From NCBI GenBank assembly GCA_964569695.1, contig CAZMUA010000016.1:5270-69269 (forward strand): 64,000 nucleotides of DNA. The letters run 5' to 3'. A program made the position numbers and the translations under genes. Under the pieces are notes generated by a model. The model did not search any database and was not told the origin of the DNA. It worked only from the letters and a program-made list of their open reading frames with translations. This DNA is from an uncultured Woeseiaceae bacterium. Lineage in GTDB: Bacteria; Acidobacteriota; Vicinamibacteria; Vicinamibacterales; UBA823. Position 1 is the first letter of the stretch; every line of letters starts with the position of its first letter. Below are positions 9,215 through 64,000 of the stretch, piece after piece.

Positions 9215-9246
9215 AGTTGATTACCTCATAGAGTTTGGAGGGTGAG

Positions 9247-10263
9247 TTATGGTGTGCTTAGAAAGGATCGAATCTCTTCAAAAGCACGGTCCTGTTCACA
9301 TCGGAACGATTGGTGGCCGCAGTCGTTGTCAAAGACGAGCGTTTGTGAATTCGTTAATTCAGCAAAGGTTAGTGCTGGGCCCGGGGTGACCATATGGTCA
9401 TAGGTGCCCACGACAGCGAGTATCTCAGCTTTGACGGCGTCTGCAGTTACTTGCCATTCACCATCAAAGGATGTTGAAACGTCGTGTGCAATCATAGCTT
9501 GGAGTTGAGCCACGCGGTCATTAATAGCGAGTGTCATGCCCCCTGCCCGTCCATCCTTCAGTAACGCGGCACCTTGGTCGTTGGGATCTTGTCGGGCATG
9601 GAAGTCCGGTGAGTATAGGGCAAGGTGGCTGATCATCCCGGCGACTTCAAGCGCGGTGGTTTCATTGCAGTCGCAATCGAGTGCCTGTTCCAACGCTATC
9701 AATTGGGCAGTCCATAAGAGCAAGTCGTAGGAGGCCAGTCGTGGTGAACCAACAATCGGGACGGCGCGATCCATGAACTCCGGGTAGGCTGTGACCCATT
9801 CGTAGGCTTGCATTCCACCCATGGAAATGCCGATGACCGCATGCAGATGGGTGATACCAAGCACTTCGGTCAGTAGTTGGTGTTGCGACTTCACCATGTC
9901 ACCAATGCTAACTACGGGAAAGTTACGTTGTGGTTGCTGGGTGCTATTGGATGGAGATGATGAGATTCCGTTAGCTAGGGCGTCAACGGTAATGAGAAAA
10001 AACTGTGAGGTATCGACTGCACCCACAGCATCGCTAGTGAAGAGCTCTTCGGATGTGCCGGTGAACCACGTTGGAAACAAAATAACGTTTGATCGGTCTG
10101 CGTTCAGAGTACCCGCGGTTCGATATGCGATTTTGGCATCTTGAATCACATCACCATTTTCGAGTTTAAAATTTCCCAAACTAGCAATTTGAAGTGGGGG
10201 AGCCTCGGCTGCATGAAGCGTTATCGAGAGCAGTAGACAGAGAAGCATGAAGACGGATCGCAT
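9247..10263 (-). CDS. Exported alpha/beta-fold hydrolase (MetX/homoserine acetyltransferase-like fold)
   Basis: I moved the start to the internal ATG at 10263 (MRSVFMLLCLLLSITLHA signal peptide). This removes the overlap with the upstream gene. Nucleophile elbow GISMGGMQA. Confidence 0.7.
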   Translation of the reverse strand: MRSVFMLLCLLLSITLHAAEAPPLQIASLGNFKLENGDVIQDAKIAYRTAGTLNADRSNVILFPTWFTGTSEELFTSDAVGAVDTSQFFLITVDALANGISSSPSNSTQQPQRNFPVVSIGDMVKSQHQLLTEVLGITHLHAVIGISMGGMQAYEWVTAYPEFMDRAVPIVGSPRLASYDLLLWTAQLIALEQALDCDCNETTALEVAGMISHLALYSPDFHARQDPNDQGAALLKDGRAGGMTLAINDRVAQLQAMIAHDVSTSFDGEWQVTADAVKAEILAVVGTYDHMVTPGPALTFAELTNSQTLVFDNDCGHQSFRCEQDRAFEEIRSFLSTP

Positions 10264-10312
10264 AATATTTTGTTTCCTCCAGTTATTTAGGACTCGGTAA
10301 TGATAAATGTTT

Positions 10313-11302
10313 TTAACCTTCTGATAGTTGTTCGAGGTCAACCGATAGTTCAGCTGCAAGGCGCTCTCCATTTGGGCTCGTGTATGTGACGACTCCTGTA
10401 ATTGCTTGGACTTCGAACGAGAACTCACTTAAAGAACGGTTGTCGTTCGTTGGCCGGTTGAACACCACCTCCGTGCGATGTTGGGTTGTCCTCCACTCGC
10501 TAGTTGGGAATACAGCGGCGGTGACCTGGCTTGGGAACCATTCAATATTGTAAGGAAGCACTGTCCATTGCAGAATCATCTCTGGTTTGTCCATGGTCGT
10601 AGGCGTGTGCACACCTGTCCGTAGTTCTGCACTGAAAGGCCGGTTTGGTGCATCGAGACGGGTGGGAACTCGAGTAGACCAATTCTCAAAACGCGCAACG
10701 TTACCATGATTAATGAGCCGTGTTCCTGATATTGAGACTGGTAGTAGTAATTCAATGAATGCTTGTCCGGGTAGGCACTCTTCTTTACACGCCAGCCAAT
10801 TCACAGTGGCCGTTAAATGCCATTCATGATCTGGATCATGGTTGGAGGACTGCACGTCGGTCTGTAGCAAAACCTGATCGCGATAGCCATAGCCATCTAT
10901 TGCGTCTGGTGACCTGACTCGAATAGGGGATGGCCAGCGAAGCCGACCATGTACAAAATCAGGAGGTAATGCGAAATCAACCTGAGTCGGGTCACCAGAT
11001 GCACCTGGATTTTTCCAGTAGATAAACCATCCAGGTTCGATGTCAAGCAGGACTCCAAGTTTAAAGTCGTTTCCAGACTGTATGATGGAAACATCGGCAA
11101 TCAGCTCGACGTTCACCGGTGATGCTTGTGGTGCGAGGGGTCTGATCTCAGCCAGTTCCTGATTTTGAGCACTCGGTTCCAAATCGGTTTCGGACGGACT
11201 TCCACATCCAAAAGAAACACCGAGTATTAAGGTGCTAGTCGTAAGGCTTACGAGTGCGCTGTGGTTAAAGGCTCTCACATTTTTCGAGGCTTGGTAGGAC
11301 AT
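10313..11302 (-). CDS. Lipoprotein with a DsbD N-terminal (DsbD-alpha)-like thiol:disulfide domain
   Basis: Lipobox GVSFGC. Motifs GWFIYWKNPGASGDPT and WLACKEECLPG are characteristic of the DsbD_N family. Confidence 0.6.
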   Translation of the reverse strand: MSYQASKNVRAFNHSALVSLTTSTLILGVSFGCGSPSETDLEPSAQNQELAEIRPLAPQASPVNVELIADVSIIQSGNDFKLGVLLDIEPGWFIYWKNPGASGDPTQVDFALPPDFVHGRLRWPSPIRVRSPDAIDGYGYRDQVLLQTDVQSSNHDPDHEWHLTATVNWLACKEECLPGQAFIELLLPVSISGTRLINHGNVARFENWSTRVPTRLDAPNRPFSAELRTGVHTPTTMDKPEMILQWTVLPYNIEWFPSQVTAAVFPTSEWRTTQHRTEVVFNRPTNDNRSLSEFSFEVQAITGVVTYTSPNGERLAAELSVDLEQLSEG

Positions 11303-11478
11303 GTCGAAAGCTTAAGGCTAAAGGCTGTTTATCTCTGAAGTCAACCCAAGGTTGCCTCAGAAAACAACAATTTTTGTACTTTTTGAACAGTCGATGGTTT
11401 GAGGTCCTCCTTGTGATATTTTTCTTGGACATATGCGTGTTTCGTTGATTGACTGGACTGGCCCAAGGGAGGCTTCGA

Positions 11479-13839
11479 ATGTTTTTTTGGTTGAATGGAA
11501 TCATTGCACGGGTGCTACTGATCGGACTAATTTCTGTTGGCACTGCCCTTTCGGTAATTGCACAGGATAGGCTGTCAGCTGGCGTCGAAGCACTCACGGC
11601 AGAAGATTATGCCCAAGCCGAACAATTCATGAGCTATAACACCGCACCCCTAGTCTCCGGTGCGACCGTGCTGCCAACTTGGCTTGAGAATGATCGTTTT
11701 TGGTACCGCAATATAACAAATGAGGGTACCGAGTTTGTGTTGGTTGATCCTCTTGAGGGTACACGTCAATTGGCATTTGATCATGCTCGCCTGGCCGAAG
11801 CGCTATCGGCAGCGACTAACTCCACATACCGTGCCGAGACGCTCCCGTTTGAAGTTTTCGATTTTGCATCTGACGGCCAGACCGTTGTATTCGAGCTTGA
11901 TGATCAGGCGTGGCGTTGCGATGTAGGGGTGGTTGAATGTGTGACCGGGACGCAAGCCGCATCAGGGTCAAATGAACAATCTCGAAATGATGCTATATCC
12001 CCAGACGGCAGTCTTGCTGCATATCTTCACGATCACAACATTTGGGTACGGAATCAGGAAACAGGTGAGGAAACACAAATCACCTTCGACGGTGTCGAAG
12101 ACCTTGCCTATGCCACTGACAATGCAGGCTGGCGTAGAAGTGATCGTCCAATCGTAGTGTGGTCTCCAGATTCCAAGAAGCTGGCTACCTTTGTGCAAGA
12201 TCAGCAAGATGTGGGGAGGATGCACCTTGTGGAAACCCGGGTAGGGCACCCGATCCTCCATTCGTGGGTGTATCCGCTTCCTGGTGATGACGTCATCACA
12301 ACAATTCAGCGGGTCGTGGTAGATGTCGAGGAAAAGCGCGTTATACGTTTCTTGATGCCGGCTGACCAACACCGGTCCACACTCTGTGACGATCTGCCAT
12401 GTCGAGGTGTGTGGCGCGACGTCCAATGGCATCCGGATAGTTCTCGTGTGGCCTTTGTCTCAACGTCTCGCGATCACAAACAGGCGCACTTGAGGATTGC
12501 TGATGCAATGACTGGAGAGATTCGTGACTTGTTCGAAGAGGTTGTCGAGACGTTCTTTGAATCAGGCAATGGGATGGTGAATTGGCGTTACTTGCCACGT
12601 TCTAACGAGATCATTTGGTTTTCGCAGCGTGATGAGTGGGGCCATCTTTATCTCTACGACCTTCAGTCAGGAGAATTGAAGAAGCAAATTACAACTGGTG
12701 TTGGTAACGTGACGCAGTTGTTACGGGTCGACGAAGAAAACCGTTTACTGTATTTTCTTGGTGTCGGACGAGAACCCGGACGGAATCCCTACTATCGTCA
12801 TCTTTATCGTGTTGGTTTCGATGGTCAGCAACTGAAGTTGTTAACCCCTGAGGACGGCGATCACAATGTGACACTTTCGCCATCGGGTCAATTTTTCATT
12901 GATCGTAATTCAGAACCAGATGTACCACCGGTTGCAACACTACGAGCGGCAGACGGCCAAGACATATTAACGTTAGAGCAAGCGGACATCACTCGACTAA
13001 CTGCCACGGGCTGGCGCCCACCGCTTCCATTCACGGTCAAGGCGCGGGATGGCGTAACTGATTTACATGGTCTTCTGTTTCGACCAACCAATTTTGATGA
13101 AAATCGTCAATATCCGATCATTAATCAAATTTATCCTGGCCCCCAAACAGGAAGTGTCCGTGGTCGTAGCTTTGCAGCTTCGCGTGGAGATGCGCAGGCA
13201 CTGGCCGAACTAGGTTTTGTTGTGGTGCAGATCGATGGGATGGGTACACCTTGGCGTTCTAAATCATTTCATGAGGCGTATTACGGCGACATGGGAGATA
13301 ACACGTTACCAGATCAGGTGACAGGTATGCAGCAATTGGCTGCACGGTTTGCATGGATTGATCTTGAACGGGCCGGCATTTATGGCCACTCAGGTGGTGG
13401 CTATGCAACGGCGGCAGCTATGTTTAGGTACCCTGATTTCTTTAAAGTTGGTGTTTCTGGAGCGGGGAATCATGACAACCGCGTCTATGAAGATGATTGG
13501 GGAGAGAAGTGGCAGGGTTTGCTGACTCGCTCTGCGGACGGTTCGACCAACTACGATAATCAGGCCAATCAGAACATTGCAGAAAATCTATCGGGTAAAC
13601 TGCTTCTCGCTCATGGGACGATGGACACCAACGTACCCGTGTACAACACCTTACTCGTCGTCGATGCGTTGATTAAGGCAAACAAGGATTTTGATTTACT
13701 ACTACTCCCAAATCGCGGACATGGTTTTGGCAATGAGCCCTACTGGATCCGGAAGCGATGGGATTATTTTGTCAGGCACTTACTCGGGGCAGAACCTCCC
13801 CAAGGATATGCACTTCGACCGGCTTCGAGTACTCGCTAA
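11479..13839 (+). CDS. S9B dipeptidyl-peptidase IV-family serine peptidase (beta-propeller plus alpha/beta hydrolase)
   Basis: ATG at 11479 preceded by GGGAGG. Signal peptide present. Nucleophile IYGHSGGGY. Acid and His segments HGTMDTNV and NRGHGF. Confidence 0.85.
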   Translation: MFFWLNGIIARVLLIGLISVGTALSVIAQDRLSAGVEALTAEDYAQAEQFMSYNTAPLVSGATVLPTWLENDRFWYRNITNEGTEFVLVDPLEGTRQLAFDHARLAEALSAATNSTYRAETLPFEVFDFASDGQTVVFELDDQAWRCDVGVVECVTGTQAASGSNEQSRNDAISPDGSLAAYLHDHNIWVRNQETGEETQITFDGVEDLAYATDNAGWRRSDRPIVVWSPDSKKLATFVQDQQDVGRMHLVETRVGHPILHSWVYPLPGDDVITTIQRVVVDVEEKRVIRFLMPADQHRSTLCDDLPCRGVWRDVQWHPDSSRVAFVSTSRDHKQAHLRIADAMTGEIRDLFEEVVETFFESGNGMVNWRYLPRSNEIIWFSQRDEWGHLYLYDLQSGELKKQITTGVGNVTQLLRVDEENRLLYFLGVGREPGRNPYYRHLYRVGFDGQQLKLLTPEDGDHNVTLSPSGQFFIDRNSEPDVPPVATLRAADGQDILTLEQADITRLTATGWRPPLPFTVKARDGVTDLHGLLFRPTNFDENRQYPIINQIYPGPQTGSVRGRSFAASRGDAQALAELGFVVVQIDGMGTPWRSKSFHEAYYGDMGDNTLPDQVTGMQQLAARFAWIDLERAGIYGHSGGGYATAAAMFRYPDFFKVGVSGAGNHDNRVYEDDWGEKWQGLLTRSADGSTNYDNQANQNIAENLSGKLLLAHGTMDTNVPVYNTLLVVDALIKANKDFDLLLLPNRGHGFGNEPYWIRKRWDYFVRHLLGAEPPQGYALRPASSTR

Positions 13840-55515: not shown

Positions 55516-57330
55516 GTGGCAAATCTATGGACTCGCCGGAGTGTGACGGCGGTCATCATGCTCGTGGGGGTCTGTTGGACCGCAACGGTAGCGGCGCAAG
55601 AGGTGGCTTATACCGTCGCGATGCCGCAGCTGACGACGGGTCTGTTGCATGTGACGCTGGACATTCGAAACGTACCGGATGACACGCTTGAGGTCGCGAT
55701 GCCGGTGTGGTCACCCGGTGGCTACGGACTGCACTGGGCTTCCAAAAACGTGCAAGAGTTGTGGGCGGAGGATGGAGAGGGGCAAGGCTTGGACGTGGTC
55801 CAGGTGGATACCAGCCGGTGGCGCATACGCCCAGTCACATCGAGGGCTTACGTGCACTATAAGGTGTTCGTTGGCCAGCGTGCCATGGATGACTCGCACG
55901 CCAGAATCAGTGGGACGCGATCATTAATGTACGTCGTGGGGCAAGCCCCATACCCGGCAGGTGGGCCGGTTACGATTACCGTCAATGGGCCAGACGGATG
56001 GATGTTTGCCACGGGTCTTGACGCGATCGGCCCCGGGGTCTTCACGGCTCCCGACTACGACACACTCATCGACTCACCGATTGAAGTCGCCGAACATTTA
56101 GATCAGTTCGCGTTCGAGGACCACGGTGCGCGTTACGAAATCGCGATCCGGAACCCGCACGGGTATGACAGGGATTTACTGCGGGACGAAATACAAGCCA
56201 TCGTGGCTGAGCAGGTAGAAATGATGGGCGGTGCGCCATTCGACCGCTATGTCTTTCTGCTCACGGGGCAGAACCGTCGCGGCGGTGGCCTCGAGCATCT
56301 GAACTCGACGACGATCAGTTTCAAACGCTTCGATAGCTTAACCTCAGCGGATTATCATCGCCTGCAATTCCTCATTGCTCACGAGTTTTTCCATCTGTGG
56401 AATGTGAAACGTATTCGACCAGAGATTCTTGGGCCGTTTGATTACTCGGGGCCGCAACACACACGCAATTTGTATGTGTCTGAAGGGATGTCCGACTATT
56501 ACGGCTACCTGTCGGTGACGCGTGCCGGCTTGTGGTCCCGGCAGGAATTCTACGCCGAGTTAGCTTCGGTCATCCAAACACTTCAGCGTGCGCCGGGACG
56601 CCTGATTACGTCAGTTGAGTCGGCGAGTTGGAATACCTGGACGCGATCAGATAACGCCGCGCACACTGGAATATCGTACTACATCAAGGGAAGTCTCATT
56701 GGACTCCTTATCGATTTGGAGATGCGCGCACGCACGAACGGGCGCAAGAGCCTCGATGATGTATTTCGCTATTTGTTGTCCGAGCATGGACTTCCGAAGC
56801 CGGGCTTTGCCGAGCAGGGCGGCTTTCGTGAGGCAGTCGAAACAATTACCGCTGAAGGCGGTGGCGGATCGGACTTCTCAGCTTTCTTTCGCCGATACGT
56901 CTCGGGTGTCGAGGAACTCAAGTACAATGCTGCGCTGGATCACGTCGGCCTTCGGCTTGAGACCATTGAGGGGTCGGTGCGGCGCTCGCTTGGTGTTACG
57001 ACGTCGGTTGATGCCGATCGACTCATCGTCACCGCGATGTCGCCGAGTGGGGCAGGCTATGAGAATGGACTGATGGCCGGCGATATTCTATTGATGCTCG
57101 ACGGTGACCGCGCCGTTCCCTCAACTCTGGAGGCGCGCCTGCAAGCTCACGCTGTGGGTGACGAGGTGGAGTTACTGGTGGTTCGCGGCGATCGGCTGGT
57201 GACCGTTTCGGTGGAACTCCAAGAAGATAGGGAGACCACGTATCAGATTGTCGAGACCGCGAACGCCTCACCCCGTGCCCTCTCGTTGCGGGATGCTTGG
57301 CTCGAGCCCTATGTGTCTCAGGTGCACTAA
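55516..57330 (+). CDS. Exported M61-family glycyl aminopeptidase with a C-terminal PDZ domain
   Basis: GTG after GAGGAGG. Signal peptide present. Zinc motif AHEFFHLWNVKRIRP. The C-terminal GLMAGDILLMLDG is PDZ-like. Confidence 0.85.
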   Translation: MANLWTRRSVTAVIMLVGVCWTATVAAQEVAYTVAMPQLTTGLLHVTLDIRNVPDDTLEVAMPVWSPGGYGLHWASKNVQELWAEDGEGQGLDVVQVDTSRWRIRPVTSRAYVHYKVFVGQRAMDDSHARISGTRSLMYVVGQAPYPAGGPVTITVNGPDGWMFATGLDAIGPGVFTAPDYDTLIDSPIEVAEHLDQFAFEDHGARYEIAIRNPHGYDRDLLRDEIQAIVAEQVEMMGGAPFDRYVFLLTGQNRRGGGLEHLNSTTISFKRFDSLTSADYHRLQFLIAHEFFHLWNVKRIRPEILGPFDYSGPQHTRNLYVSEGMSDYYGYLSVTRAGLWSRQEFYAELASVIQTLQRAPGRLITSVESASWNTWTRSDNAAHTGISYYIKGSLIGLLIDLEMRARTNGRKSLDDVFRYLLSEHGLPKPGFAEQGGFREAVETITAEGGGGSDFSAFFRRYVSGVEELKYNAALDHVGLRLETIEGSVRRSLGVTTSVDADRLIVTAMSPSGAGYENGLMAGDILLMLDGDRAVPSTLEARLQAHAVGDEVELLVVRGDRLVTVSVELQEDRETTYQIVETANASPRALSLRDAWLEPYVSQVH

Positions 57331-57337
57331 GTAGCTC

Positions 57338-57796
57338 GTGAAAAGCATCAGGCATTACGAGGCGTGTGTTTTGGTGACCGCGGTCTTGTGCACTGCGTGT
57401 GGCGGAGGCACGGGAACGAGTCCATACGCACCCACTTCGACTACCTCCTCGTCTAACCCAACGGTGGCCTTTAGTGCGACCGATTTGACCGTCACGACTG
57501 GAGCGCAGGCGGCTAACGGTGACAGTTTGACGGCGACTTACTCTGGCTGGTTGTATGACCAGGCGGCGCCAGAGAACAAAGGCTCGTTGTTCGATTCCAC
57601 TAGTGATGGCTTTACGTTTGTGCTTGGTGCCGGTCAGGTGATCACAGGCTGGGACCAGGGCCTCGTGGGCATGCGGGTCGGCGCGAAACGCCGCTTGGTC
57701 ATTCCACCGTCAATGGCGTATGGCGCGACCGGGGTAGGCAGTATTCCTGGCAACGCGACTCTCGTGTTTGAGGTGGTCTTAGTGAGTATTCAGTAA
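57338..57796 (+). CDS. FKBP-type peptidyl-prolyl cis-trans isomerase, exported or lipoprotein
   Basis: [29 protein letters not shown]....[16 protein letters not shown]. Confidence 0.85.
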
Positions 57797-57831
57797 GCAC
57801 CATCACAGACAGTATCGGTCACGTGGTAGCT

Positions 57832-59280
57832 TCACTCGAAGTACTTCTGCACGATCCAATCCGGTTGCCACTGATCCGGAAATCGGTCGGCATCACTCAG
57901 GTCAATTGTGGCTGGTTCCGGTGATGGAACGGTAAGTGCTTGAGTATCTCCGAGTTGGTGCTGCCAATTTCTTAATAAGGCCGTGAGGTAGTCGATGCGC
58001 TCTGAGTAGACTTCGTCGTTAGCCAAGTTATGGAGTTCATCCGGATCGGCTTGTAAATCGAACAGTTGCGTATGATCAATCTGAGGGTACCGAATGAGTT
58101 TGTATCGATCGTCGCGCACGGCGCGTGCCACATCACGATATGCCAAAAACAGGGAGTCTCGAATTGATTCCTGTGTGCCCTGCCAGAGGCTCGACAGGTC
58201 GTGTCCATCGATCGCGTCGAGTGGAGGGGTGTTCGTGAGCCTACTGATGGTCGGTACGAGATCGAAAAGATAAGTGAGTGCTGTAGTTTCGCCGTGGGGG
58301 ACGTCCGGGCCGACAATGATCAGAGGGCTTTGCTGGCTATGTTCGTACACGGACTGCTTACCGAGCAGCCCATGTGAACCGACAGCGAGTCCATGGTCAG
58401 CGGCGTAGATGACATACGTGTTGTCGGCGTGATTTGACTCGGCGAGGCCATCGAGGATGCGACCGACTTCAGCATCGAGATGGGAGATGAGCCCGTAATA
58501 TTCGGCTAATTGTTCCTGGATCACCTCCGGGGTCCGCGGCCAACCGGCCAGTCGTTCATCGCGACCCGTTAGGTCGCTGTCGCTATTATTGAAAGGATGT
58601 TGCGGTAAGAAGTTTGTTGGGAGTGGAGGCGGATTTTCGTAATACTGATTCCGATACGGGACGGGTGGCTGTCGCGGATCGTGCGGTGCGGTAAAAGCGA
58701 CATAGGCATAAAATGGCGCCTCTTCCTTATAGTTTTGCAAGAAGTCAATAACGGCGTCGGCAAACACGGTGCTGGAAAAGCCGTCGACCCGATCGTTGAC
58801 CAAGTTACCGTTTTCGTCGAGATCTTGCAGCGGCACCAGGGTATGGTCACTCATACCGCCGAAGAATACAGCCGTACCGCGTTGGAAACTTCGTAACCAG
58901 GAGGCTGGGCCGTTGTGCCACTTCCCGGTCGCGAAGGTGGTGTAACCTTCAGCGCCAAGCACTTCGGGAAGGAGTACCGTGTCACGCAAATCTGGTTCTA
59001 GGCGAAAGTAACTTTTTCCACTGTTGACCATCGCGCGACTGGGGATACACACGGCTCCATGCATGCTGCCCAAATTGTAGTTAGCACGGAAGCTGAATCC
59101 CTCGCGAGCTAATTGATCAAGATGGGGTGTTTCAATGTGAGGATTTCCCCACGCCCCAATCGTATCGGCGCGTTGATCGTCTGCGAATAAAAATAAGATA
59201 TTCGGCCGTGAGGGTGTTGCTGATGTGCATCCAAGGCTGAGAAGGATCGGAGCGAGCCAGTAGAGGTTTCGTGTGTGCAT
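57832..59280 (-). CDS. Cys-type sulfatase (arylsulfatase A family) lipoprotein
   Basis: Start refined to the ATG at 59280 (lipobox LSLGC). NILFLFADDQRAD. Formylglycine motif VCIPSRAMVNSG. Confidence 0.9.
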   Translation of the reverse strand: MHTRNLYWLAPILLSLGCTSATPSRPNILFLFADDQRADTIGAWGNPHIETPHLDQLAREGFSFRANYNLGSMHGAVCIPSRAMVNSGKSYFRLEPDLRDTVLLPEVLGAEGYTTFATGKWHNGPASWLRSFQRGTAVFFGGMSDHTLVPLQDLDENGNLVNDRVDGFSSTVFADAVIDFLQNYKEEAPFYAYVAFTAPHDPRQPPVPYRNQYYENPPPLPTNFLPQHPFNNSDSDLTGRDERLAGWPRTPEVIQEQLAEYYGLISHLDAEVGRILDGLAESNHADNTYVIYAADHGLAVGSHGLLGKQSVYEHSQQSPLIIVGPDVPHGETTALTYLFDLVPTISRLTNTPPLDAIDGHDLSSLWQGTQESIRDSLFLAYRDVARAVRDDRYKLIRYPQIDHTQLFDLQADPDELHNLANDEVYSERIDYLTALLRNWQHQLGDTQALTVPSPEPATIDLSDADRFPDQWQPDWIVQKYFE

Positions 59281-59293
59281 GGATATCTTCTTG

Positions 59294-60130
59294 TTAAGTG
59301 AGGTTTCGTGTTGCCAAAATTTCACGCACCGGCGTTCGATCGCCATTGGCGCTAATCCGTCGTGGCGCAGCGAGGTACCGTATCTTGTAGTCGAGTCGAC
59401 GATAGAGTGCGCGAATGCGACGCGTAGCCTGGTTCACGAGAATGACCGGTCCTGGGTGCTCAACAAGCCATTCGGCGGTTCGCACCTGATCGTCCCACGT
59501 GAAACCTTCTTTTGCATAAGCCGTAAATTGAACATCGTATGGTGGATCGGCATAGACAAAATCTGTCGGCTGGAGTACGAGATCGGAAAAATCTCCAGTA
59601 GTCAATTTCCAATGGTTGAAGATCTTTCGGTAGGACAGAAAGTCGCGGGCGTAATGGATGGTTTTATACCGTCCAAAGGGTACGTTGAACTCGTCGCGTC
59701 GATTGAAGCGACATAATCCGTTGTAGCCCGTGCGGTTTAAATAATAGAACAGTGACGCGGCTTCACGGGTGTGGCTTTTACCGTCCCGGAGTAGGGCATT
59801 AAACCGTGTACGGTGTGTGGTGAAGAGCGAGGCATCATTCTTCATCGCGATCTCAGATTGAAGGCCTTTCTTGAGCCAACGATAAAAGTTAATTAGGTGT
59901 GGATTCACATCGTTGAGGAGTGCCCGTCGTGGTTGGAGTCCAAGCGTGACGGCGAGTCCCCCACAGAAGGGTTCGACCAGGCGACACTTTGTGTGGCCTG
60001 TCCAGAGCGGAAGTAACTGAGGTAATTGCCAGCGTTTTCCACCTGCCCACTTTAATGGTGGGGAGGTTGGGTCATTGGTAGATGTTACTGGGGGCATTTC
60101 CCTACTAGTATTCTCGAAAACTCGGTACAC
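59294..60130 (-). CDS. dam: DNA adenine methyltransferase (Dam/D12-class N6-adenine MTase), no cognate nuclease nearby
   Basis: PLKWAGGKRW, EPFCGGLAV (SAM motif I) and YADPPYD (motif IV). The start is either GTG 60130 or ATG 60097. One 60-nt line sampled in this gene is 47% G+C, against 62% for a line in the neighbouring sulfatase gene. Confidence 0.9.
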   Translation of the reverse strand: MYRVFENTSREMPPVTSTNDPTSPPLKWAGGKRWQLPQLLPLWTGHTKCRLVEPFCGGLAVTLGLQPRRALLNDVNPHLINFYRWLKKGLQSEIAMKNDASLFTTHRTRFNALLRDGKSHTREAASLFYYLNRTGYNGLCRFNRRDEFNVPFGRYKTIHYARDFLSYRKIFNHWKLTTGDFSDLVLQPTDFVYADPPYDVQFTAYAKEGFTWDDQVRTAEWLVEHPGPVILVNQATRRIRALYRRLDYKIRYLAAPRRISANGDRTPVREILATRNLT

Positions 60131-60231
60131 TGCACGCCGTTCCTGCTCAAGGACCGACGACTTACGGTAGGATCATATTGTTGTGGCACCTTGTGGCGAT
60201 GACCTGTTGGCCACCTTGAGGAGGACCAGCG

Positions 60232-61035
60232 ATGTTGTTTCACCGACAAACTTATAGTGTTTGCATACTTGCGGCCGGGTTTTGGCTTAGTGCTGGGTCG
60301 GTTAGTGCGCAGTCGAACCTACCACTTGTGTTCATCCTAGCAGGGCAGTCCAACATGGTGGGCCAAGGTGTGACGGCCGAGTTAACGGCTGACCAGATGA
60401 CCACACCATCCAATGTGACTTATCTCATGGAGACCGGTGAGACAGGGTTGTTCGATCGGGCACGGTTCGGACCCGAAGTGAGTCTAGTGCCACGTTTGGC
60501 GCAGGCTTGGCCAGATCGGGAACTAATTTTCGTGAAACATGCAGTCGGAGGAACCTCACTGCTGGCGTGGGCTCCGGTGTGGGACGCCGCGCGAGCGGAA
60601 CTTACTCGGAACGCGGAGGTCGGCCCACTCTATACTCAACTGCTCGCGATTCTCGACCGGCATGAGTTGCGCGGGGAAGCTGAGATTGGGGCGGTGTTCT
60701 GGATGCAGGGGGAGTCGGATGCGCGGTATCCAGAAGTCGCCGCCGAATATCTTGATAATCTCACCACTCTCATTGCCGCCTTTCGAGACGATTTGCAGAA
60801 TACCGAATTATTGTTCTTGATGGGGCGGGCTAATCCGAGCCCCGAGAGGTATACGGAATTGCCAGTCGTGCAGCGTGCGCAGCAACGCACCGCCGACGAA
60901 TTGGCAGCCGTTCGGGTCATCGACACCGAGGAGCTGTCCAAGCGTGATGACGGCGTGCATTACGATACTGCCGGCGTGCTTGACCTTGGGCACCGATTTG
61001 CAGCGGCCTTGATGGCCGAGCTTCGTAATCCGTGA
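60232..61035 (+). CDS. Exported sialate O-acetylesterase-like (DUF303/CE6-type SGNH) esterase
   Basis: RBS GAGGAGG. Signal peptide present. FILAGQSNMVGQG, GGTSLLAW, WMQGESDA. Confidence 0.75.
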   Translation: MLFHRQTYSVCILAAGFWLSAGSVSAQSNLPLVFILAGQSNMVGQGVTAELTADQMTTPSNVTYLMETGETGLFDRARFGPEVSLVPRLAQAWPDRELIFVKHAVGGTSLLAWAPVWDAARAELTRNAEVGPLYTQLLAILDRHELRGEAEIGAVFWMQGESDARYPEVAAEYLDNLTTLIAAFRDDLQNTELLFLMGRANPSPERYTELPVVQRAQQRTADELAAVRVIDTEELSKRDDGVHYDTAGVLDLGHRFAAALMAELRNP

Positions 61036-61631
61036 GTGATGCGATGAAGCGAACCGTTGTCCTTTTAGTTGTCCTCAGTATGCTTCCCGTCGGCTATCTG
61101 GTGGTAGGCCCGTATCTCACCCTTAATGCCATCAGAACGGCTCTGGAAACCGAAGACCTTGAGCGTTTGACTAAGTATGTGGATTTTCCGGAGTTGCGGC
61201 GTAATGTGCAGTCCCAAGTCCAGGCATTACTGGCCAAGCGGAATCCTACGCCTGATGACGCAGCCCGTGGCAGTGTCGTCGTAGGTGACGTCATCGTGGA
61301 GGCGTTGGTCGAGCGGTTTGTGACGCCGGCGACCATTCTCAGTTGGGCAGCGGGTGAATCAACTGCTCCAATCGCCGAGGCAGAGACGTCAGCGAACCCT
61401 GATGACAGCGTGGTCACACCGGAGACACCACCGCCGTCCAAGACTTTCTTTGGAGACGTCCGCACAAGTTACGAGTCGATCAGCCGCTTTGCGATCTGGG
61501 TGTCGAACGACCGGGACGAGGAGGTCGGCTTTATCCTAACGCGGCGTGGGTTTGTCTGGAAACTGACCAATATTGTTCTACCAGAACACGAACTGCAACA
61601 ACGCACCCTCACCGGTTGGAGTGGTTTGTAA
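61032..61631 (+). CDS. DUF2939-like membrane-anchored protein
   Basis: N-terminal TM followed by L..I..A....D...L..YVDFPELR..V. The start (61032 or ATG 61044) overlaps or abuts the esterase stop. Confidence 0.45.
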   Translation: MSDAMKRTVVLLVVLSMLPVGYLVVGPYLTLNAIRTALETEDLERLTKYVDFPELRRNVQSQVQALLAKRNPTPDDAARGSVVVGDVIVEALVERFVTPATILSWAAGESTAPIAEAETSANPDDSVVTPETPPPSKTFFGDVRTSYESISRFAIWVSNDRDEEVGFILTRRGFVWKLTNIVLPEHELQQRTLTGWSGL

Positions 61632-61824
61632 AAAGGATACGGAGGAACGTACTTTTTAAGGCCGTCGCATTGCATGCCCTGTTCACATTGCGCTACCCAG
61701 CCCGCAGCAGTAAAATCTTCGCCTATGCGTGCATCATCGTGATTAGTGGAGGACAGAACTGACTTCTCCGACGGGGAGCACATCATCGTATGCTGACGAT
61801 AACAGCACCGCATACCGTCTGCTG

Positions 61825-62550
61825 TTGGAGATCGAGGTGGTCCTTCGCGAGCTCGTCGCTCAAGCGTATAAGGACGAATACGGGAAGGGTTGGGAAAAGC
61901 AACTACCAGGGGATTTGCGAGTAGTTATTAAAGAGAGGCAGGATGATGAAACCGGCCGGAAAGAATTTGATTTCAGAACGCTCGGTGCGCTCTATTACTT
62001 ATCTTTTGGTGACCTGGTTAAGGTCTTGAGCCAAAATGTCGGGAAAGAAGTTACAGCACAATTTGGTGGCGCTGCGTTCCATAAGGAACTGGAGAAATTG
62101 CTGATTCCGCGCAATGCGGTCGCTCATAGTCGCCCCGTTTCATCTGTAGGACTTCAGGCGGTGAAACTCGTGCACGGCAAGCTAGAGAGTGCGTTAACGC
62201 GGGACGGCATGGATGCACGCCTAAAGGATCCCGCGGTAGGTTTGACTCCCAGTGAAGTGATTCCGGACCTGCGTGTGTGGGTCCAGAAGGTGATCAAGAC
62301 CACCGAGAAACTCGATGGTCCCTGTGACGTGTCTACAGATTACGCGCGAGCGTCTGCCCAGTACTGGTGGGGAGATTCTGCGCTCGCAGGGTTTGACACG
62401 ACCTCGGTCGATGCTTTTGTTGGAGTGGTCGAACAGTACAATGCACTACCCGAGATGTTGGGTGTGGCTGAGCAGCGGCGCCAACTCTTGAGCAAGACGG
62501 ACTGGACAGGCCTATCATCGAGAGTACTAGAGAGCCTCGGGGAGGAGTGA
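61825..62550 (+). CDS. Swt1-like HEPN-domain protein (predicted RNase) with an uncharacterised ~115-aa C-terminal domain
   Basis: TTG start. LEIEVVLRELVAQAY...GKGWEKQLP...LYYLSFGDLVKVL...LEKLLIPRNAVAHSRPVS contains the Rx4H HEPN catalytic motif in the Swt1-like context. Confidence 0.7.
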   Translation: MEIEVVLRELVAQAYKDEYGKGWEKQLPGDLRVVIKERQDDETGRKEFDFRTLGALYYLSFGDLVKVLSQNVGKEVTAQFGGAAFHKELEKLLIPRNAVAHSRPVSSVGLQAVKLVHGKLESALTRDGMDARLKDPAVGLTPSEVIPDLRVWVQKVIKTTEKLDGPCDVSTDYARASAQYWWGDSALAGFDTTSVDAFVGVVEQYNALPEMLGVAEQRRQLLSKTDWTGLSSRVLESLGEE

Positions 62551-62557
62551 TATCCAC

Positions 62558-64000
62558 TTGTCGCATCAACCGAATCCCTACGTGCGTGCGCCCATTAAGG
62601 ATCGAGAGAACCTCGCTGGGCGACGCCAAGAACTAAAGGACATTGAGTACTACTTTAGTCTCACCGCAGCAGATCAAAATCCACACCTCGCGCTGATTGG
62701 GGAACGTGGATCTGGGAAGACCAGCCTCCTCAATGTCGCGGAAGCAGTAGCTCAAAAGAAAAAACTCTTGACGCTTCGCCTCGACCTAGATGAACAGAAG
62801 GTTGAATCCATGGGGCGTTTCTGGACCAGCTTCTACAGCGCGCTCTGTTCGCAGGCAGCTAAGGCTGGTTGCTGGGGAGGCGAGAAGGGACCTATATACC
62901 AAGCGCTGCTACAGATGCTACACACCAACACGGTGCCTGACAATGCGATGGCGGTCTTAACATTTCCCATGGTGCGCGCAAGTCACACGGGCACTCCAGC
63001 TGATCTCGATTGCGCGGACGAAGTCATTGTTGACGATCTAGACCGTCTTATTCATGACAGCCTGAAGGAACGGGGACTCCAAGGGTTAGTGGTTTTGATC
63101 GATGAGGCTGACTGTTTAGGGCAGAACAAACCCCTCTTACAGAAACTTCGCAATGTGTTCCAGAGGCTCTCAGGTGCGTCGTTGGTTTTGGCTGGTACTA
63201 ACAACATCTTCCCGACCATGGAGGAGGTGTTTTCTCCAATGCCACGGCAATTCCACCAGATCGAGGTGCGTCCGTTTTCAAATTTGTTTGACACATACAG
63301 GATGGTGCAAAGTCCTCTTAAAAACAAAGACCTTAGGCCAGCACTCGATCAGATCGAGTCCTTGCATAGGACATGCGGAGGAGACCCGTCTGTCGTGCAA
63401 TTGTATTGTCACAACATGTACCGGCTCATGATTGAGGAGCGGAAGAACGATCGGATGTCGCTCCACCCAGACGTCTTTAAAGCCGTACTTAGTGAGTTCC
63501 GGACTAATACGTCAGAAGATAACTTGCGAGTACTGGACGCGCTTGACCATCTCCCTGATCAGATTCTTCTCAACTCCCCTTGGCTGTGTTCCAGGAAGTT
63601 GACACCAGACGAGTGGAAGAAATTAGGCCACTTAGTAAGTGGACTTAAAGACGGCCGTAAGGCAACGCCTGCAGCACGTGAGAAGCTAGCAGAAAGGATC
63701 AAGGACAGCCTCAGAATTCTCTTCGAGGCAGGTATCACGACCACAGCTGACCGGTTTCAGCTAAAGGGCGAACCGGTCACAAGCAGTTACTGGACATCTC
63801 TTACGGAACAGAGGAAAGAAAAAGAGTGGAAATGGAGAGATGGAAGTTGGTCCGAGGAGGCCATAAACCTTGTTGAAAATGGTCTCGTGGGTGATCCGAA
63901 GTTAAATGGAATTCGACCGGGCACGGACGTGGAGGACACAGAGGCAAGCGAGCAGAGTTTTTATGCAGCGTTGAATCGAATAAGGACGGGTCAACCGCTG
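62558..64000 (+). CDS. STAND/AAA-type P-loop ATPase (arch-ATPase/ORC-Cdc6-like), 3' partial. It is absent from the supplied ORF track because it has no stop codon in the window.
   Basis: The frame is open for 481 codons from TTG 62558 to the window end (hand-translated). The RBS GGAGGAG lies 11 nt upstream, inside the end of the HEPN gene. N-terminal RENLAGRRQELKDIEYYF. Walker A GERGSGKTS. Walker B GLVVLIDEAD. Helical-lid segment TCGGDPSVVQLYCHNMY. Confidence 0.75.
   Translation, partial: MSHQPNPYVRAPIKDRENLAGRRQELKDIEYYFSLTAADQNPHLALIGERGSGKTSLLNVAEAVAQKKKLLTLRLDLDEQKVESMGRFWTSFYSALCSQAAKAGCWGGEKGPIYQALLQMLHTNTVPDNAMAVLTFPMVRASHTGTPADLDCADEVIVDDLDRLIHDSLKERGLQGLVVLIDEADCLGQNKPLLQKLRNVFQRLSGASLVLAGTNNIFPTMEEVFSPMPRQFHQIEVRPFSNLFDTYRMVQSPLKNKDLRPALDQIESLHRTCGGDPSVVQLYCHNMYRLMIEERKNDRMSLHPDVFKAVLSEFRTNTSEDNLRVLDALDHLPDQILLNSPWLCSRKLTPDEWKKLGHLVSGLKDGRKATPAAREKLAERIKDSLRILFEAGITTTADRFQLKGEPVTSSYWTSLTEQRKEKEWKWRDGSWSEEAINLVENGLVGDPKLNGIRPGTDVEDTEASEQSFYAALNRIRTGQPL

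Follow-up and report, generated by a model that had tools for sequence, protein, structure and literature searches.

A HEPN-ATPase gene pair from uncultured bacteria and archaea as a candidate split anti-phage defence module

The type I restriction-modification (R-M) system EcoprrI keeps the HEPN anticodon nuclease PrrC latent until a phage anti-restriction peptide releases it, and the gene for this nuclease, prrC, sits between hsdS and hsdR of that system. HEPN RNases are active as dimers, and switches of the STAND/AAA+ type oligomerise upon binding of ligand and nucleotide. Here we describe a two-gene cassette, encoding a predicted HEPN RNase followed by a P-loop ATPase, at the 3′ end of a 64,000-nucleotide stretch of DNA from an uncultured bacterium of the Acidobacteriota (GenBank assembly GCA_964569695.1, contig CAZMUA010000016.1, positions 5,270 to 69,269 of the forward strand; this whole stretch is referred to below as the window). 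Judged from the sequences of the two products and their relatives, the pair is most likely an unnamed anti-phage defence module. On present evidence it would be a split, two-polypeptide HEPN plus STAND/AAA+ module that has a docking domain of its own and a genomic habit like that of PrrC. Its domain logic was anticipated in the literature, and the family to which it belongs appears to be unnamed and widespread in uncultured lineages.

Among the genes that lie inside type I R-M systems, those for defence are strongly enriched, and PrrC is almost confined to such systems (bioRxiv 10.1101/2024.01.29.577857). Like the pair described here, PrrC and RloC combine a HEPN RNase with a P-loop NTPase; the slot between hsdS and hsdR that PrrC occupies is also that of about half of the close relatives of the pair, although not of the copy in the window, and the suggested logic, a latent RNase backing up restriction, is shared. 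However, PrrC is a single polypeptide with an N-terminal ABC-type ATPase and a C-terminal HEPN domain, whereas the pair consists of two polypeptides with the HEPN gene first, its ATPase is predicted to be STAND/ORC-Cdc6-like AAA+ with TPR, its HEPN domain is assigned to the Swt1/Abi2 branch, and many of its copies are solo. The PrrC/RloC models of PADLOC found no match in the pair.

A catalogue of 2013 lists Swt1/Abi2-type HEPN domains fused to STAND-TPR and, in R-M-like operons, to a DUF499 AAA+ ATPase (PMC3710099). The HEPN-STAND-TPR fusions, such as Npun_F6454, were given a predicted role in conflict or defence (Anantharaman et al. 2013, PMC3710099) and have by description the same domain set as the pair (Swt1/Abi2 HEPN, STAND NTPase and TPR), but they are single proteins, some with S1, whereas the HEPN domain of the pair is separate and carries its own C-terminal domain; no fused HEPN-ATPase form was present among the best 150 relatives of the HEPN protein. 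The HEPN-DUF499 systems are now called Hma or type-1 BREX-related (PMC12839542). In these systems (HmaC; Ava_2192), too, an N-terminal Swt1-type HEPN domain is joined to a STAND/ORC-Cdc6 AAA+ ATPase, and their operons also encode an N6-adenine methyltransferase and a helicase-nuclease (PMC3710099, PMC12839542). This layout parallels the order hsdM-hsdS-HEPN-ATPase-hsdR, and the HEPN domain has been proposed there as a back-up suicide effector. They differ from the pair in being fused and in having a DUF499/BrxC-like ATPase with a tail of winged helix-turn-helix (wHTH), alpha+beta, wHTH and RRM domains, whereas the pair has no DUF499 match, a TPR C-terminus and, as its R-M partner, a classical type I system rather than Hma or BR. 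Avs and other NLR-like STAND proteins, for which an expected mechanism of ligand-induced oligomerisation activating the effector is shared with the pair (PMC13581612), also have a STAND NTPase, C-terminal TPR-like helical repeats and a nuclease effector. In Avs the effector is fused N-terminally and the sensor is usually much larger, whereas in the pair a separate gene supplies the effector in trans, clear TPR is limited to about 100 residues, and the NACHT and nSTAND families stay below threshold; a total of 589 STAND clades have been delineated (PMC13581612).

The pair was also compared with PDC-M34, a two-gene candidate system whose prediction came from cassettes found inside BREX, DISARM or type I R-M systems (Payne et al., bioRxiv 10.1101/2024.01.29.577857), whose component PDC-M34B shares its HEPN domain with the product of the first gene. 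The PDC-M34B profiles (147-192 positions) span the HEPN domain only and not the C-terminal domain of this product, and PDC-M34 is listed as FAM_01148>>FAM_01657, so that, if A and B stand in that order, the HEPN-like gene would be second, unlike in the pair. PDC-M34A had no match in the 16 family ATPases scanned (that of the window and 15 others), and we therefore rejected the identification of the pair with PDC-M34, because the A component is missing. The claim of the first-pass annotation of this DNA, made from the letters alone, that the pair matches no named system holds for PADLOC 2.0.0 and for NCBIfam 20.0 including its DS-numbered antiphage families, neither of which recognised it. A literature search under the names PDC-M34 and HEPN_Swt1 returned nothing, and the main text of the DefensePredictor and STAND-phylogeny papers does not describe the pair. 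A 720-aa stop-to-stop open reading frame (ORF) from Methanofastidiosia (L036, 588-2747), in which the C-terminal ~140 residues are PDC-M34B/Swt1-like HEPN (1.5e-25), appears from its sequence to be a different, fused architecture.

The features of the cassette in the window are given below; conserved residues of the ATPase are those of a 43-member alignment.

61660 to 61758, plus strand: left end of the cassette and 5′ leader of the HEPN gene, with the junction at 61659/61660 (comparison with the related contig L038)
61759 to 62550, plus strand: HEPN gene read from CTG, 263 aa, predicted two-domain Swt1-family HEPN protein (family alignment)
61825 to 62550, plus strand: mechanical call of the HEPN gene in the ORF list, TTG start, 241 aa
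61759 to 62232, plus strand: predicted HEPN domain, about residues 1-158, invariant E26 and R30 on helix 1 (profiles and alignment)
62110 to 62127, plus strand: HEPN motif R118-N119-A-V-A-H123 (Rx4H), R at 62110-62112 and H at 62125-62127 (sequence)
62236 to 62547, plus strand: C-terminal helical domain, about residues 160-263, with WW and LP…G motifs (family conservation)
62541 to 62547, plus strand: Shine-Dalgarno-like GGAGGAG for the ATPase gene, inside the HEPN gene (sequence)
62558 to 64000, plus strand: ATPase gene, codons 1-481 of 765, predicted STAND/ORC-Cdc6-like AAA+ (translation)
62612 to 62635, plus strand: LAGRRQEL, hhGRExE-type motif before the P-loop, L19 and R22 nearly invariant
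62699 to 62725, plus strand: Walker A GERGSGKTS, with G48, G51, G53, K54 and S56 invariant
63089 to 63112, plus strand: Walker B VVLIDEAD, with D182 and E183 invariant
63374 to 63388, plus strand: CGGDP, the GxP of the helical lid after the NTPase core, with G275 and P277 invariant

The first-pass annotation had given the positions of both frames, including an ATPase frame that starts with TTG at 62558, 7 nt past the TGA stop of the HEPN gene (62548-62550), with a GGAGGAG inside the HEPN gene, and that runs without a stop for 481 codons to base 64000. All of these were located where it had placed them, as were the motifs that it had quoted (PRNAVAHSRP, GERGSGKTS, VVLIDEAD, LAGRRQEL and CGGDP). 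The same locus is present on an independent contig, L006, which is 99.98% identical in nucleotide sequence and reaches 1 kb past the ATPase stop, about 1.9 kb past the edge of the window. The 481 residues of the window ATPase are 100% identical to a 765-aa protein of this contig (P0024), which places the end of the ATPase gene about 855 nt past the window edge and bears out the earlier expectation that its C-terminus lies outside the window, and the HEPN protein of L006 is 99% identical to that of the window. Since the identical ATPase and the 99%-identical HEPN protein occur on an independent contig, and both families are conserved over their full length, we take the two ORFs to be real genes and not chance frames. 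The genes of many relatives overlap by 4 nt at the HEPN/ATPase stop and start codons in the available gene calls, and the ATPase gene is most likely translationally coupled to the HEPN gene. A simple scan of the leader region found no sigma-70-like promoter and no terminator.

The 5′ end of the HEPN gene differs from its mechanical call. In the alignment of homologs, the consensus N-terminus of the HEPN family (M-I-P-F-E-x-D-N-L-x-A-Y-x-L-L-L-R-I-E) begins about 20 residues before the TTG at 61825, and the in-frame codons of the window 5′ of this TTG read …Y-A-D-D-N-S-T-A-Y-R-L-L-L-E-I-E, matching that conserved N-terminus. Between the preceding stop codon (61744-61746) and 61825 none of the codons ATG, GTG and TTG occurs; a GGAGGA lies 6 nt 5′ of a CTG at 61759, and the ortholog L001, which is 94% identical, has TTG at the codon where the window has this CTG. 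Because the conserved N-terminus is in frame, GGAGGA precedes the CTG and L001 has TTG there, we place the start probably at CTG 61759, 66 nt 5′ of the called TTG; CTG can initiate translation in bacteria. Alternatively, the window HEPN copy could be N-terminally truncated or weakly expressed. An exact-sequence look-up of the 241-aa product gave no match, because gene callers chose other start codons; homologs led to the locus instead. It is also conceivable that the window copy is decaying or poorly expressed, the conserved start having mutated from TTG to CTG, and that it may be inactive, as might be expected from the missing canonical start codon, from the TTG of L001 and from the clearly degraded copies found elsewhere (L018, L019, L041, L066 and L070). 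We consider this improbable, since both frames are otherwise intact and keep all invariant residues, the same CTG allele is present on the independent contig L006, and a good Shine-Dalgarno sequence precedes the CTG.

We then consider the HEPN protein itself. A word-indexed search recovered 22 relatives, and an exhaustive profile search of 1.84 billion cluster representatives (clusters at 50% identity) recovered 444 at E ≤ 0.001. These fall into two groups, a close group that is 35-45% identical to the window protein and a distant group of 255-280 aa that has both domains, and hhalign joined the two groups with a probability of 100% (E = 2.9e-41) over 250 columns covering both domains. Among 93 aligned members of the wider family, 82 matched Pfam HEPN_Swt1 (best 2.4e-13) and all 93 matched PDC-M34B, while E26, R30, R118, N119 and H123 were the sole invariant columns of the alignment. 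The HEPN assignment made at first pass is thus strongly, though indirectly, supported through the family, by the HEPN_Swt1 matches, the hhalign result and the invariant R-N-x3-H. The window protein matched PDC-M34B of PADLOC with E = 2.7e-11 over residues 12-130, a candidate defence protein and the sole defence-database model that it matched; its match to Pfam Abi_2 was below threshold (E = 0.014) and an NCBIfam scan gave no match. The invariant R-N-x3-H favours a working RNase over a protein that only binds, and the protein is predicted, from its sequence, to be an endoribonuclease. The C-terminal ~100 residues, in which W203/W204 (the WW motif) are nearly invariant in the 93-sequence alignment, had no match in Pfam, PDB or Foldseek searches and would be a family-specific domain without known relatives. 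The AlphaFold2 model of the protein is all-helical (pLDDT 84), and the family profile found among PDB sequences only chance matches to TatD (E > 1).

For the ATPase, the fragment in the window matched the Pfam families AAA_22 (36.6 bits, cut-off 27) and AAA_16 (34.0 bits, cut-off 32.6) over its N-terminal ~240 residues, and matched BrxC_BrxD (28.6 bits, cut-off 22.2) over the first ~80 residues only. Of the 43 family members, 42 matched AAA_16, 39 matched AAA_22 and up to 17 matched TPR families, and positions 590-700 of the family profile, which lie beyond the window edge, matched TPR/PPR proteins of the PDB with E = 1e-7 to 1e-10. Besides the motifs listed above, G213-T214, P229-R230-Q231-F232 and Y283-C284-H285 are conserved. 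The hhGRExE, Walker A and B, and GxP motifs are said to be the hallmarks of STAND NTPases, and LAGRxxEL in front of the P-loop is typical of AAA_16 as well as STAND proteins. The NACHT and nSTAND families of Pfam gave no above-threshold match for the ATPase family. The AlphaFold2 model of the full ATPase (pLDDT 88.8, pTM 0.79) had as its top Foldseek matches archaeal Orc1/Cdc6 (E = 1e-7), ORC4, FtsH, MuB and RFC, and the list also holds the RADAR ATPase RdrA and the plant NLR RPP1. Based on the model and the profiles, the ATPase would be a STAND/ORC-Cdc6-like AAA+ switch, either STAND proper or an ORC-Cdc6-like AAA+ protein, in which the fold of AAA+ core, lid and winged helix is followed by a helical and alpha+beta middle part and a short TPR array near the C-terminus as the putative sensor. 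The first-pass annotation had allowed that it might turn out to be a known housekeeping family once complete; the complete protein, with AAA_16/AAA_22 and TPR, and with Orc1/Cdc6 followed by RdrA and plant NLRs as its best matches, did not.

The two genes are strictly paired. In every locus with room, in bacteria and archaea, the ATPase gene lies directly 3′ of the HEPN gene on the same strand, in sum at about 49 loci of close relatives and 15 of distant ones: in 20 of 20 loci of the first set, including 10 independent species genomes, in 33 of 33 further metagenome loci with room, and in 14 of 14 distant loci with full-length HEPN genes, to which L021 can be added. The two proteins also diverge together. 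Over 22 loci, the pairwise identities of the HEPN proteins and of the ATPases are correlated with r = 0.96 (r = 0.83 within the close group and r = 0.93 within the distant group), and none of 2000 permutations of a Mantel test reached the observed value; the mean identities of the two proteins are 45% and 47% in the close group, 41% and 41% in the distant group, and 20% and 21% between the groups. The claim that the pair are conserved neighbours is therefore borne out, by adjacency as well as by co-divergence.

The hosts include Verrucomicrobiota, Hydrogenedentota, Planctomycetota, Nitrospira, Nitrosospira, Ignavibacteria, Actinomycetota, Acidobacteriota, Chloroflexota, cyanobacteria, Deltaproteobacteria, Aerophobetes and Archaeoglobaceae, and nearly all retrieved loci come from uncultured lineages (for example of Acidobacteriota, Verrucomicrobiota, Nitrospirota, Hydrogenedentota, cyanobacteria and Archaeoglobi). 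The family is rare, with 10 close and 16 distant loci (the latter retrieved with an 11-sequence subset alignment) among 185,579 species representatives, scattered over unrelated phyla; such a sparse and patchy distribution is expected for accessory genes that move horizontally. In L018, L019, L041, L066, L070 and L071 the pair is damaged by frameshifts, internal deletions or a deletion of the HEPN-ATPase junction. Two of these, L018 and L019, come from metagenome-assembled genomes (MAGs) in which several neighbouring genes are fragmented, suggesting sequencing errors there, while real decay is possible in the other damaged copies.

Tight coupling of the two genes in a mobile, minimal cassette could also be that of a toxin-antitoxin-like addiction cassette, in which the HEPN RNase would be the toxin and the ATPase its neutraliser, and would persist through post-segregational killing or through stabilisation of the island or R-M operon, without sensing phage. 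HEPN toxins with cognate neutralisers are common (HepT/MntA, RnlAB), and ParDE or PIN/DUF433 genes are neighbours at some loci. We nevertheless give this explanation little weight, because an NTPase of 765 aa that carries TPR and conserved hydrolysis motifs exceeds known antitoxins by far in size and elaboration and has the layout of a STAND sensor and switch, and because neither 50,697 phage records nor IMG/VR contained a copy, while both plasmid matches were distant ATPases without a HEPN partner. Many toxin-antitoxin systems are, moreover, defence systems, so that the explanation overlaps with the best one. One of the plasmid matches, on the Halobaculum limi plasmid NZ_CP120469 (L039, 5971-13032), is an 849-aa protein distantly related to the ATPase (E = 4e-80 against the family profile) without a HEPN partner, preceded by a PIN-like/DUF433 pair and followed by a hypothetical protein of >1480 aa. 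Judging from this arrangement, the same sensor ATPase may be paired there with a different effector.

The flanks of the cassette differ from genome to genome. Type I R-M operons enclose the pair in about half of its close relatives, the window copy being solo, and the order hsdM-hsdS-HEPN-ATPase-hsdR was found at seven distinct genome loci (L005, L009, L010, L012, L015, L019 and L020). Stop/start overlaps are frequent at both ends of the embedded pairs: at L010, hsdS ends at 9234, the HEPN gene spans 9231-10004 and the ATPase gene 10001-12310, and hsdR starts at 12307. Among the metagenome loci, hsd genes flank the pair at 10 of 34, and where at least 250 nt follow the ATPase gene, hsdR is next in 7 and not in 6. 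Other close loci adjoin transposases (Nitrospira), ParDE or unrelated housekeeping genes, and transposases, ParDE, AIPR or PIN/NYN genes adjoin the pair in several loci.

Three of the R-M loci deserve separate description. At L005 (1679-9794), an AIPR (abortive infection) gene lies between hsdS and the pair, with PIN_4 and NYN genes upstream, and from its gene content this locus appears to be a dense defence island. At L009 (6715-9231, Verrucomicrobiaceae), the hsdS product also matches the transposase-associated DUF772 and is followed by a short DDE_Tnp_1 ORF, while a separate HsdS-like remnant of 71 aa overlaps the HEPN start; hsdS was probably disrupted there by an insertion sequence element, and the pair may thus outlive its host R-M system. 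The type I R-M operon at L037 (4405-8544, Syntrophaceae) lacks a family ATPase, and five or six small genes separate its hsdS from its hsdR. One of these small genes encodes a different Swt1-like HEPN protein (…EPIRNKIAHSKP), and two more ORFs have the HEPN-like motifs RNESGH and RNQSDY.

A location bounded by hsdS and hsdR, with stop and start codons that overlap, would also be expected if the pair were an accessory part of type I R-M, the AAA+ protein remodelling, regulating or loading the Hsd complex and the HEPN-fold protein binding nucleic acid or acting as a regulator, with the solo copies as remnants. The best fold matches of the ATPase are indeed DNA-loading AAA+ proteins (Orc1/Cdc6, MuB and RFC), and the ORC-Cdc6-type proteins BrxC, BrxD and DUF499 belong to the core of R-M-like BREX and BR systems (PMC12839542). 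This explanation seems unlikely to us, because the copies in the window and in Nitrospira and 14 full-length distant loci have no hsd genes nearby and yet keep their motifs intact and co-diverge, because the R-N-x3-H invariant in 93 of 93 members argues for an active RNase, and because the cassette moves as two genes only.

That the cassette is a discrete unit in the lineage of the window was apparent from a comparison with L038, an uncultured marine Acidobacteria MAG that is 89.6% identical to window positions 57001-61659, a stretch that takes in the sulfatase, Dam-type methyltransferase, SASA esterase and DUF2939 genes; this suggests that the window organism is related to that MAG. Its homology ends 28 nt past the stop of a DUF2939 gene and resumes at the base after the ATPase stop of L006 and L001, running into an NHL-repeat gene. 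The difference in presence and absence therefore amounts to 3.19 kb, made up of the HEPN gene, the ATPase gene and a leader of ~100 nt, with no other cargo. Because L038 is without exactly these 3.19 kb, the cassette is accessory DNA, and this clean difference, together with flanks that differ in every genome, excludes the conserved core synteny that would have spoken against the earlier proposal. No integrase and no long repeats were found at the insertion borders, where the sole feature is a TTAA/TTAG-like microhomology, and there are no tRNA genes in the window. The first-pass reading is borne out in its essentials, and among the refuting outcomes it had named, none was seen in those that could be looked for here. 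Embedding in type I R-M, which it had missed, is the strongest contextual clue to the function of the pair and forms the main evidence together with co-divergence and the clean insertion/deletion difference.

The same comparison bears on whether the pair acts in housekeeping or stress-related RNA processing or decay, apart from any conflict with mobile elements. The eukaryotic HEPN proteins Swt1 and Las1 have core roles in RNA surveillance (PMC3710099), and metabolic genes flank the cassette in the window and at distant loci. Against such a role, which we regard as very unlikely, stand the few loci scattered over unrelated phyla, a close relative of the window genome that is without the cassette, and the copies that are elsewhere embedded in R-M operons.

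Our working model is that the 3.19-kb cassette is a horizontally acquired anti-phage module of the abortive-infection type. In the resting state the ATPase would keep the HEPN protein from acting, with the C-terminal domain of the latter as the probable docking element. An infection cue would be recognised by the TPR or middle region of the ATPase and would trigger its nucleotide-dependent oligomerisation, which in turn would gather the HEPN domains into active dimers. These dimers would then cleave cellular or phage RNA (tRNA, rRNA or mRNA), and phage production would stop; R-M-embedded pairs would come into play as a back-up once restriction is inhibited or overwhelmed. The genes, motifs, folds, strict pairing, co-divergence, mobility and R-M embedding are read from the data, whereas we infer the RNase activity, the defence phenotype, the physical interaction of the two proteins, the trigger and the sensor role from domains and context. 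In its general form, as defence by a switch-controlled RNase, the model seems to us probable, with appreciable room for doubt. A more specific version, in which the pair guards type I R-M by sensing anti-restriction proteins or a stalled or inhibited Hsd complex and then switches the cell to abortive infection at the level of RNA, is put forward tentatively; it would amount to the guard strategy of PrrC rebuilt from NLR-type parts. That the pair would be the first example of an unnamed and widespread two-gene immune system of bacteria and archaea, with an NLR-like STAND ATPase controlling a trans-encoded Swt1-type HEPN RNase through a docking domain, is likewise a possibility that we hold with considerable reserve.

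Several observations weigh against the defence model. The window HEPN protein alone matched Pfam HEPN_Swt1 (PF18731) below threshold (E = 0.079, 13.7 bits, cut-off 27.5; profile positions 7-97 of 115, residues 26-129). A Foldseek search of the whole two-domain HEPN-protein model against the PDB returned nothing at E < 1 and no solved HEPN structure, and for this reason the placement of the first product in the HEPN superfamily, Swt1/Abi2 branch, draws on sequence profiles and the motif and not on structure. The conserved HEPN N-terminus has no canonical start codon in the window, where either CTG or the truncated TTG would have to serve, leaving expression or integrity uncertain. The 14 full-length distant loci all lack hsd genes nearby and are thus solo, and their flanks, where scanned in Pfam (at four loci), are unrelated housekeeping genes; the two relatives on plasmids are both distant ATPases lacking a HEPN partner. 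The window cassette is itself outside a defence island, its neighbours being an esterase, a DUF2939 and an NHL-repeat gene, and the sole defence-like neighbour in the window is an orphan methyltransferase of the Dam type, 1.6 kb away on the other strand.

If the pair does work in defence, a split NLR-like architecture, with the switch and the RNase on separate proteins, would join the immune repertoire of bacteria and archaea. It would also provide a tractable second case of the PrrC idea, that of a latent RNase wired into a type I restriction operon, and would make the guarding of restriction testable with another class of ATPase. The HEPN protein's conserved C-terminal domain might represent a new kind of docking interface for effectors. 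The bias towards uncultured lineages may explain why the pair was omitted from RefSeq-based screens such as the PDC set, and shows gaps in the defence catalogues. If the pair is not a defence system, its strict pairing and R-M embedding still need an explanation.

The genes on the left flank of the cassette are as follows.

57832 to 59346, minus strand: sulfatase
59294 to 60130, minus strand: Dam-family N6-adenine DNA methyltransferase (MethyltransfD12 7e-41, TIGR00571 1.4e-53, PADLOC 'orphan MTase' 1.8e-72)
60232 to 61035, plus strand: SASA-type carbohydrate esterase, overlapping the DUF2939 gene by 4 nt
61032 to 61631, plus strand: DUF2939 protein

No restriction gene was seen adjoining the Dam-family methyltransferase. 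The DUF2939, SASA and Dam-type methyltransferase genes were tried as parts of the module and rejected, as they are present in L038 without the pair and missing from every other locus. The sulfatase, SASA and DUF2939 genes are ordinary metabolic or envelope genes that are 89-94% identical in related marine Acidobacteria contigs. The first-pass annotation had also pointed to a low G+C content of the pair. This did not hold, and a low-GC island signal could be ruled out: the portion of the cassette in the window has 52.3% G+C (51.2% over the full length in L006) compared with a window mean of 54.0%, which is the 24th percentile of equal-sized windows. In 1-kb windows over 61-64 kb, G+C is 54%, 55% and 50%, and 60-nt lines average 52% in the gene pair and 54% elsewhere.

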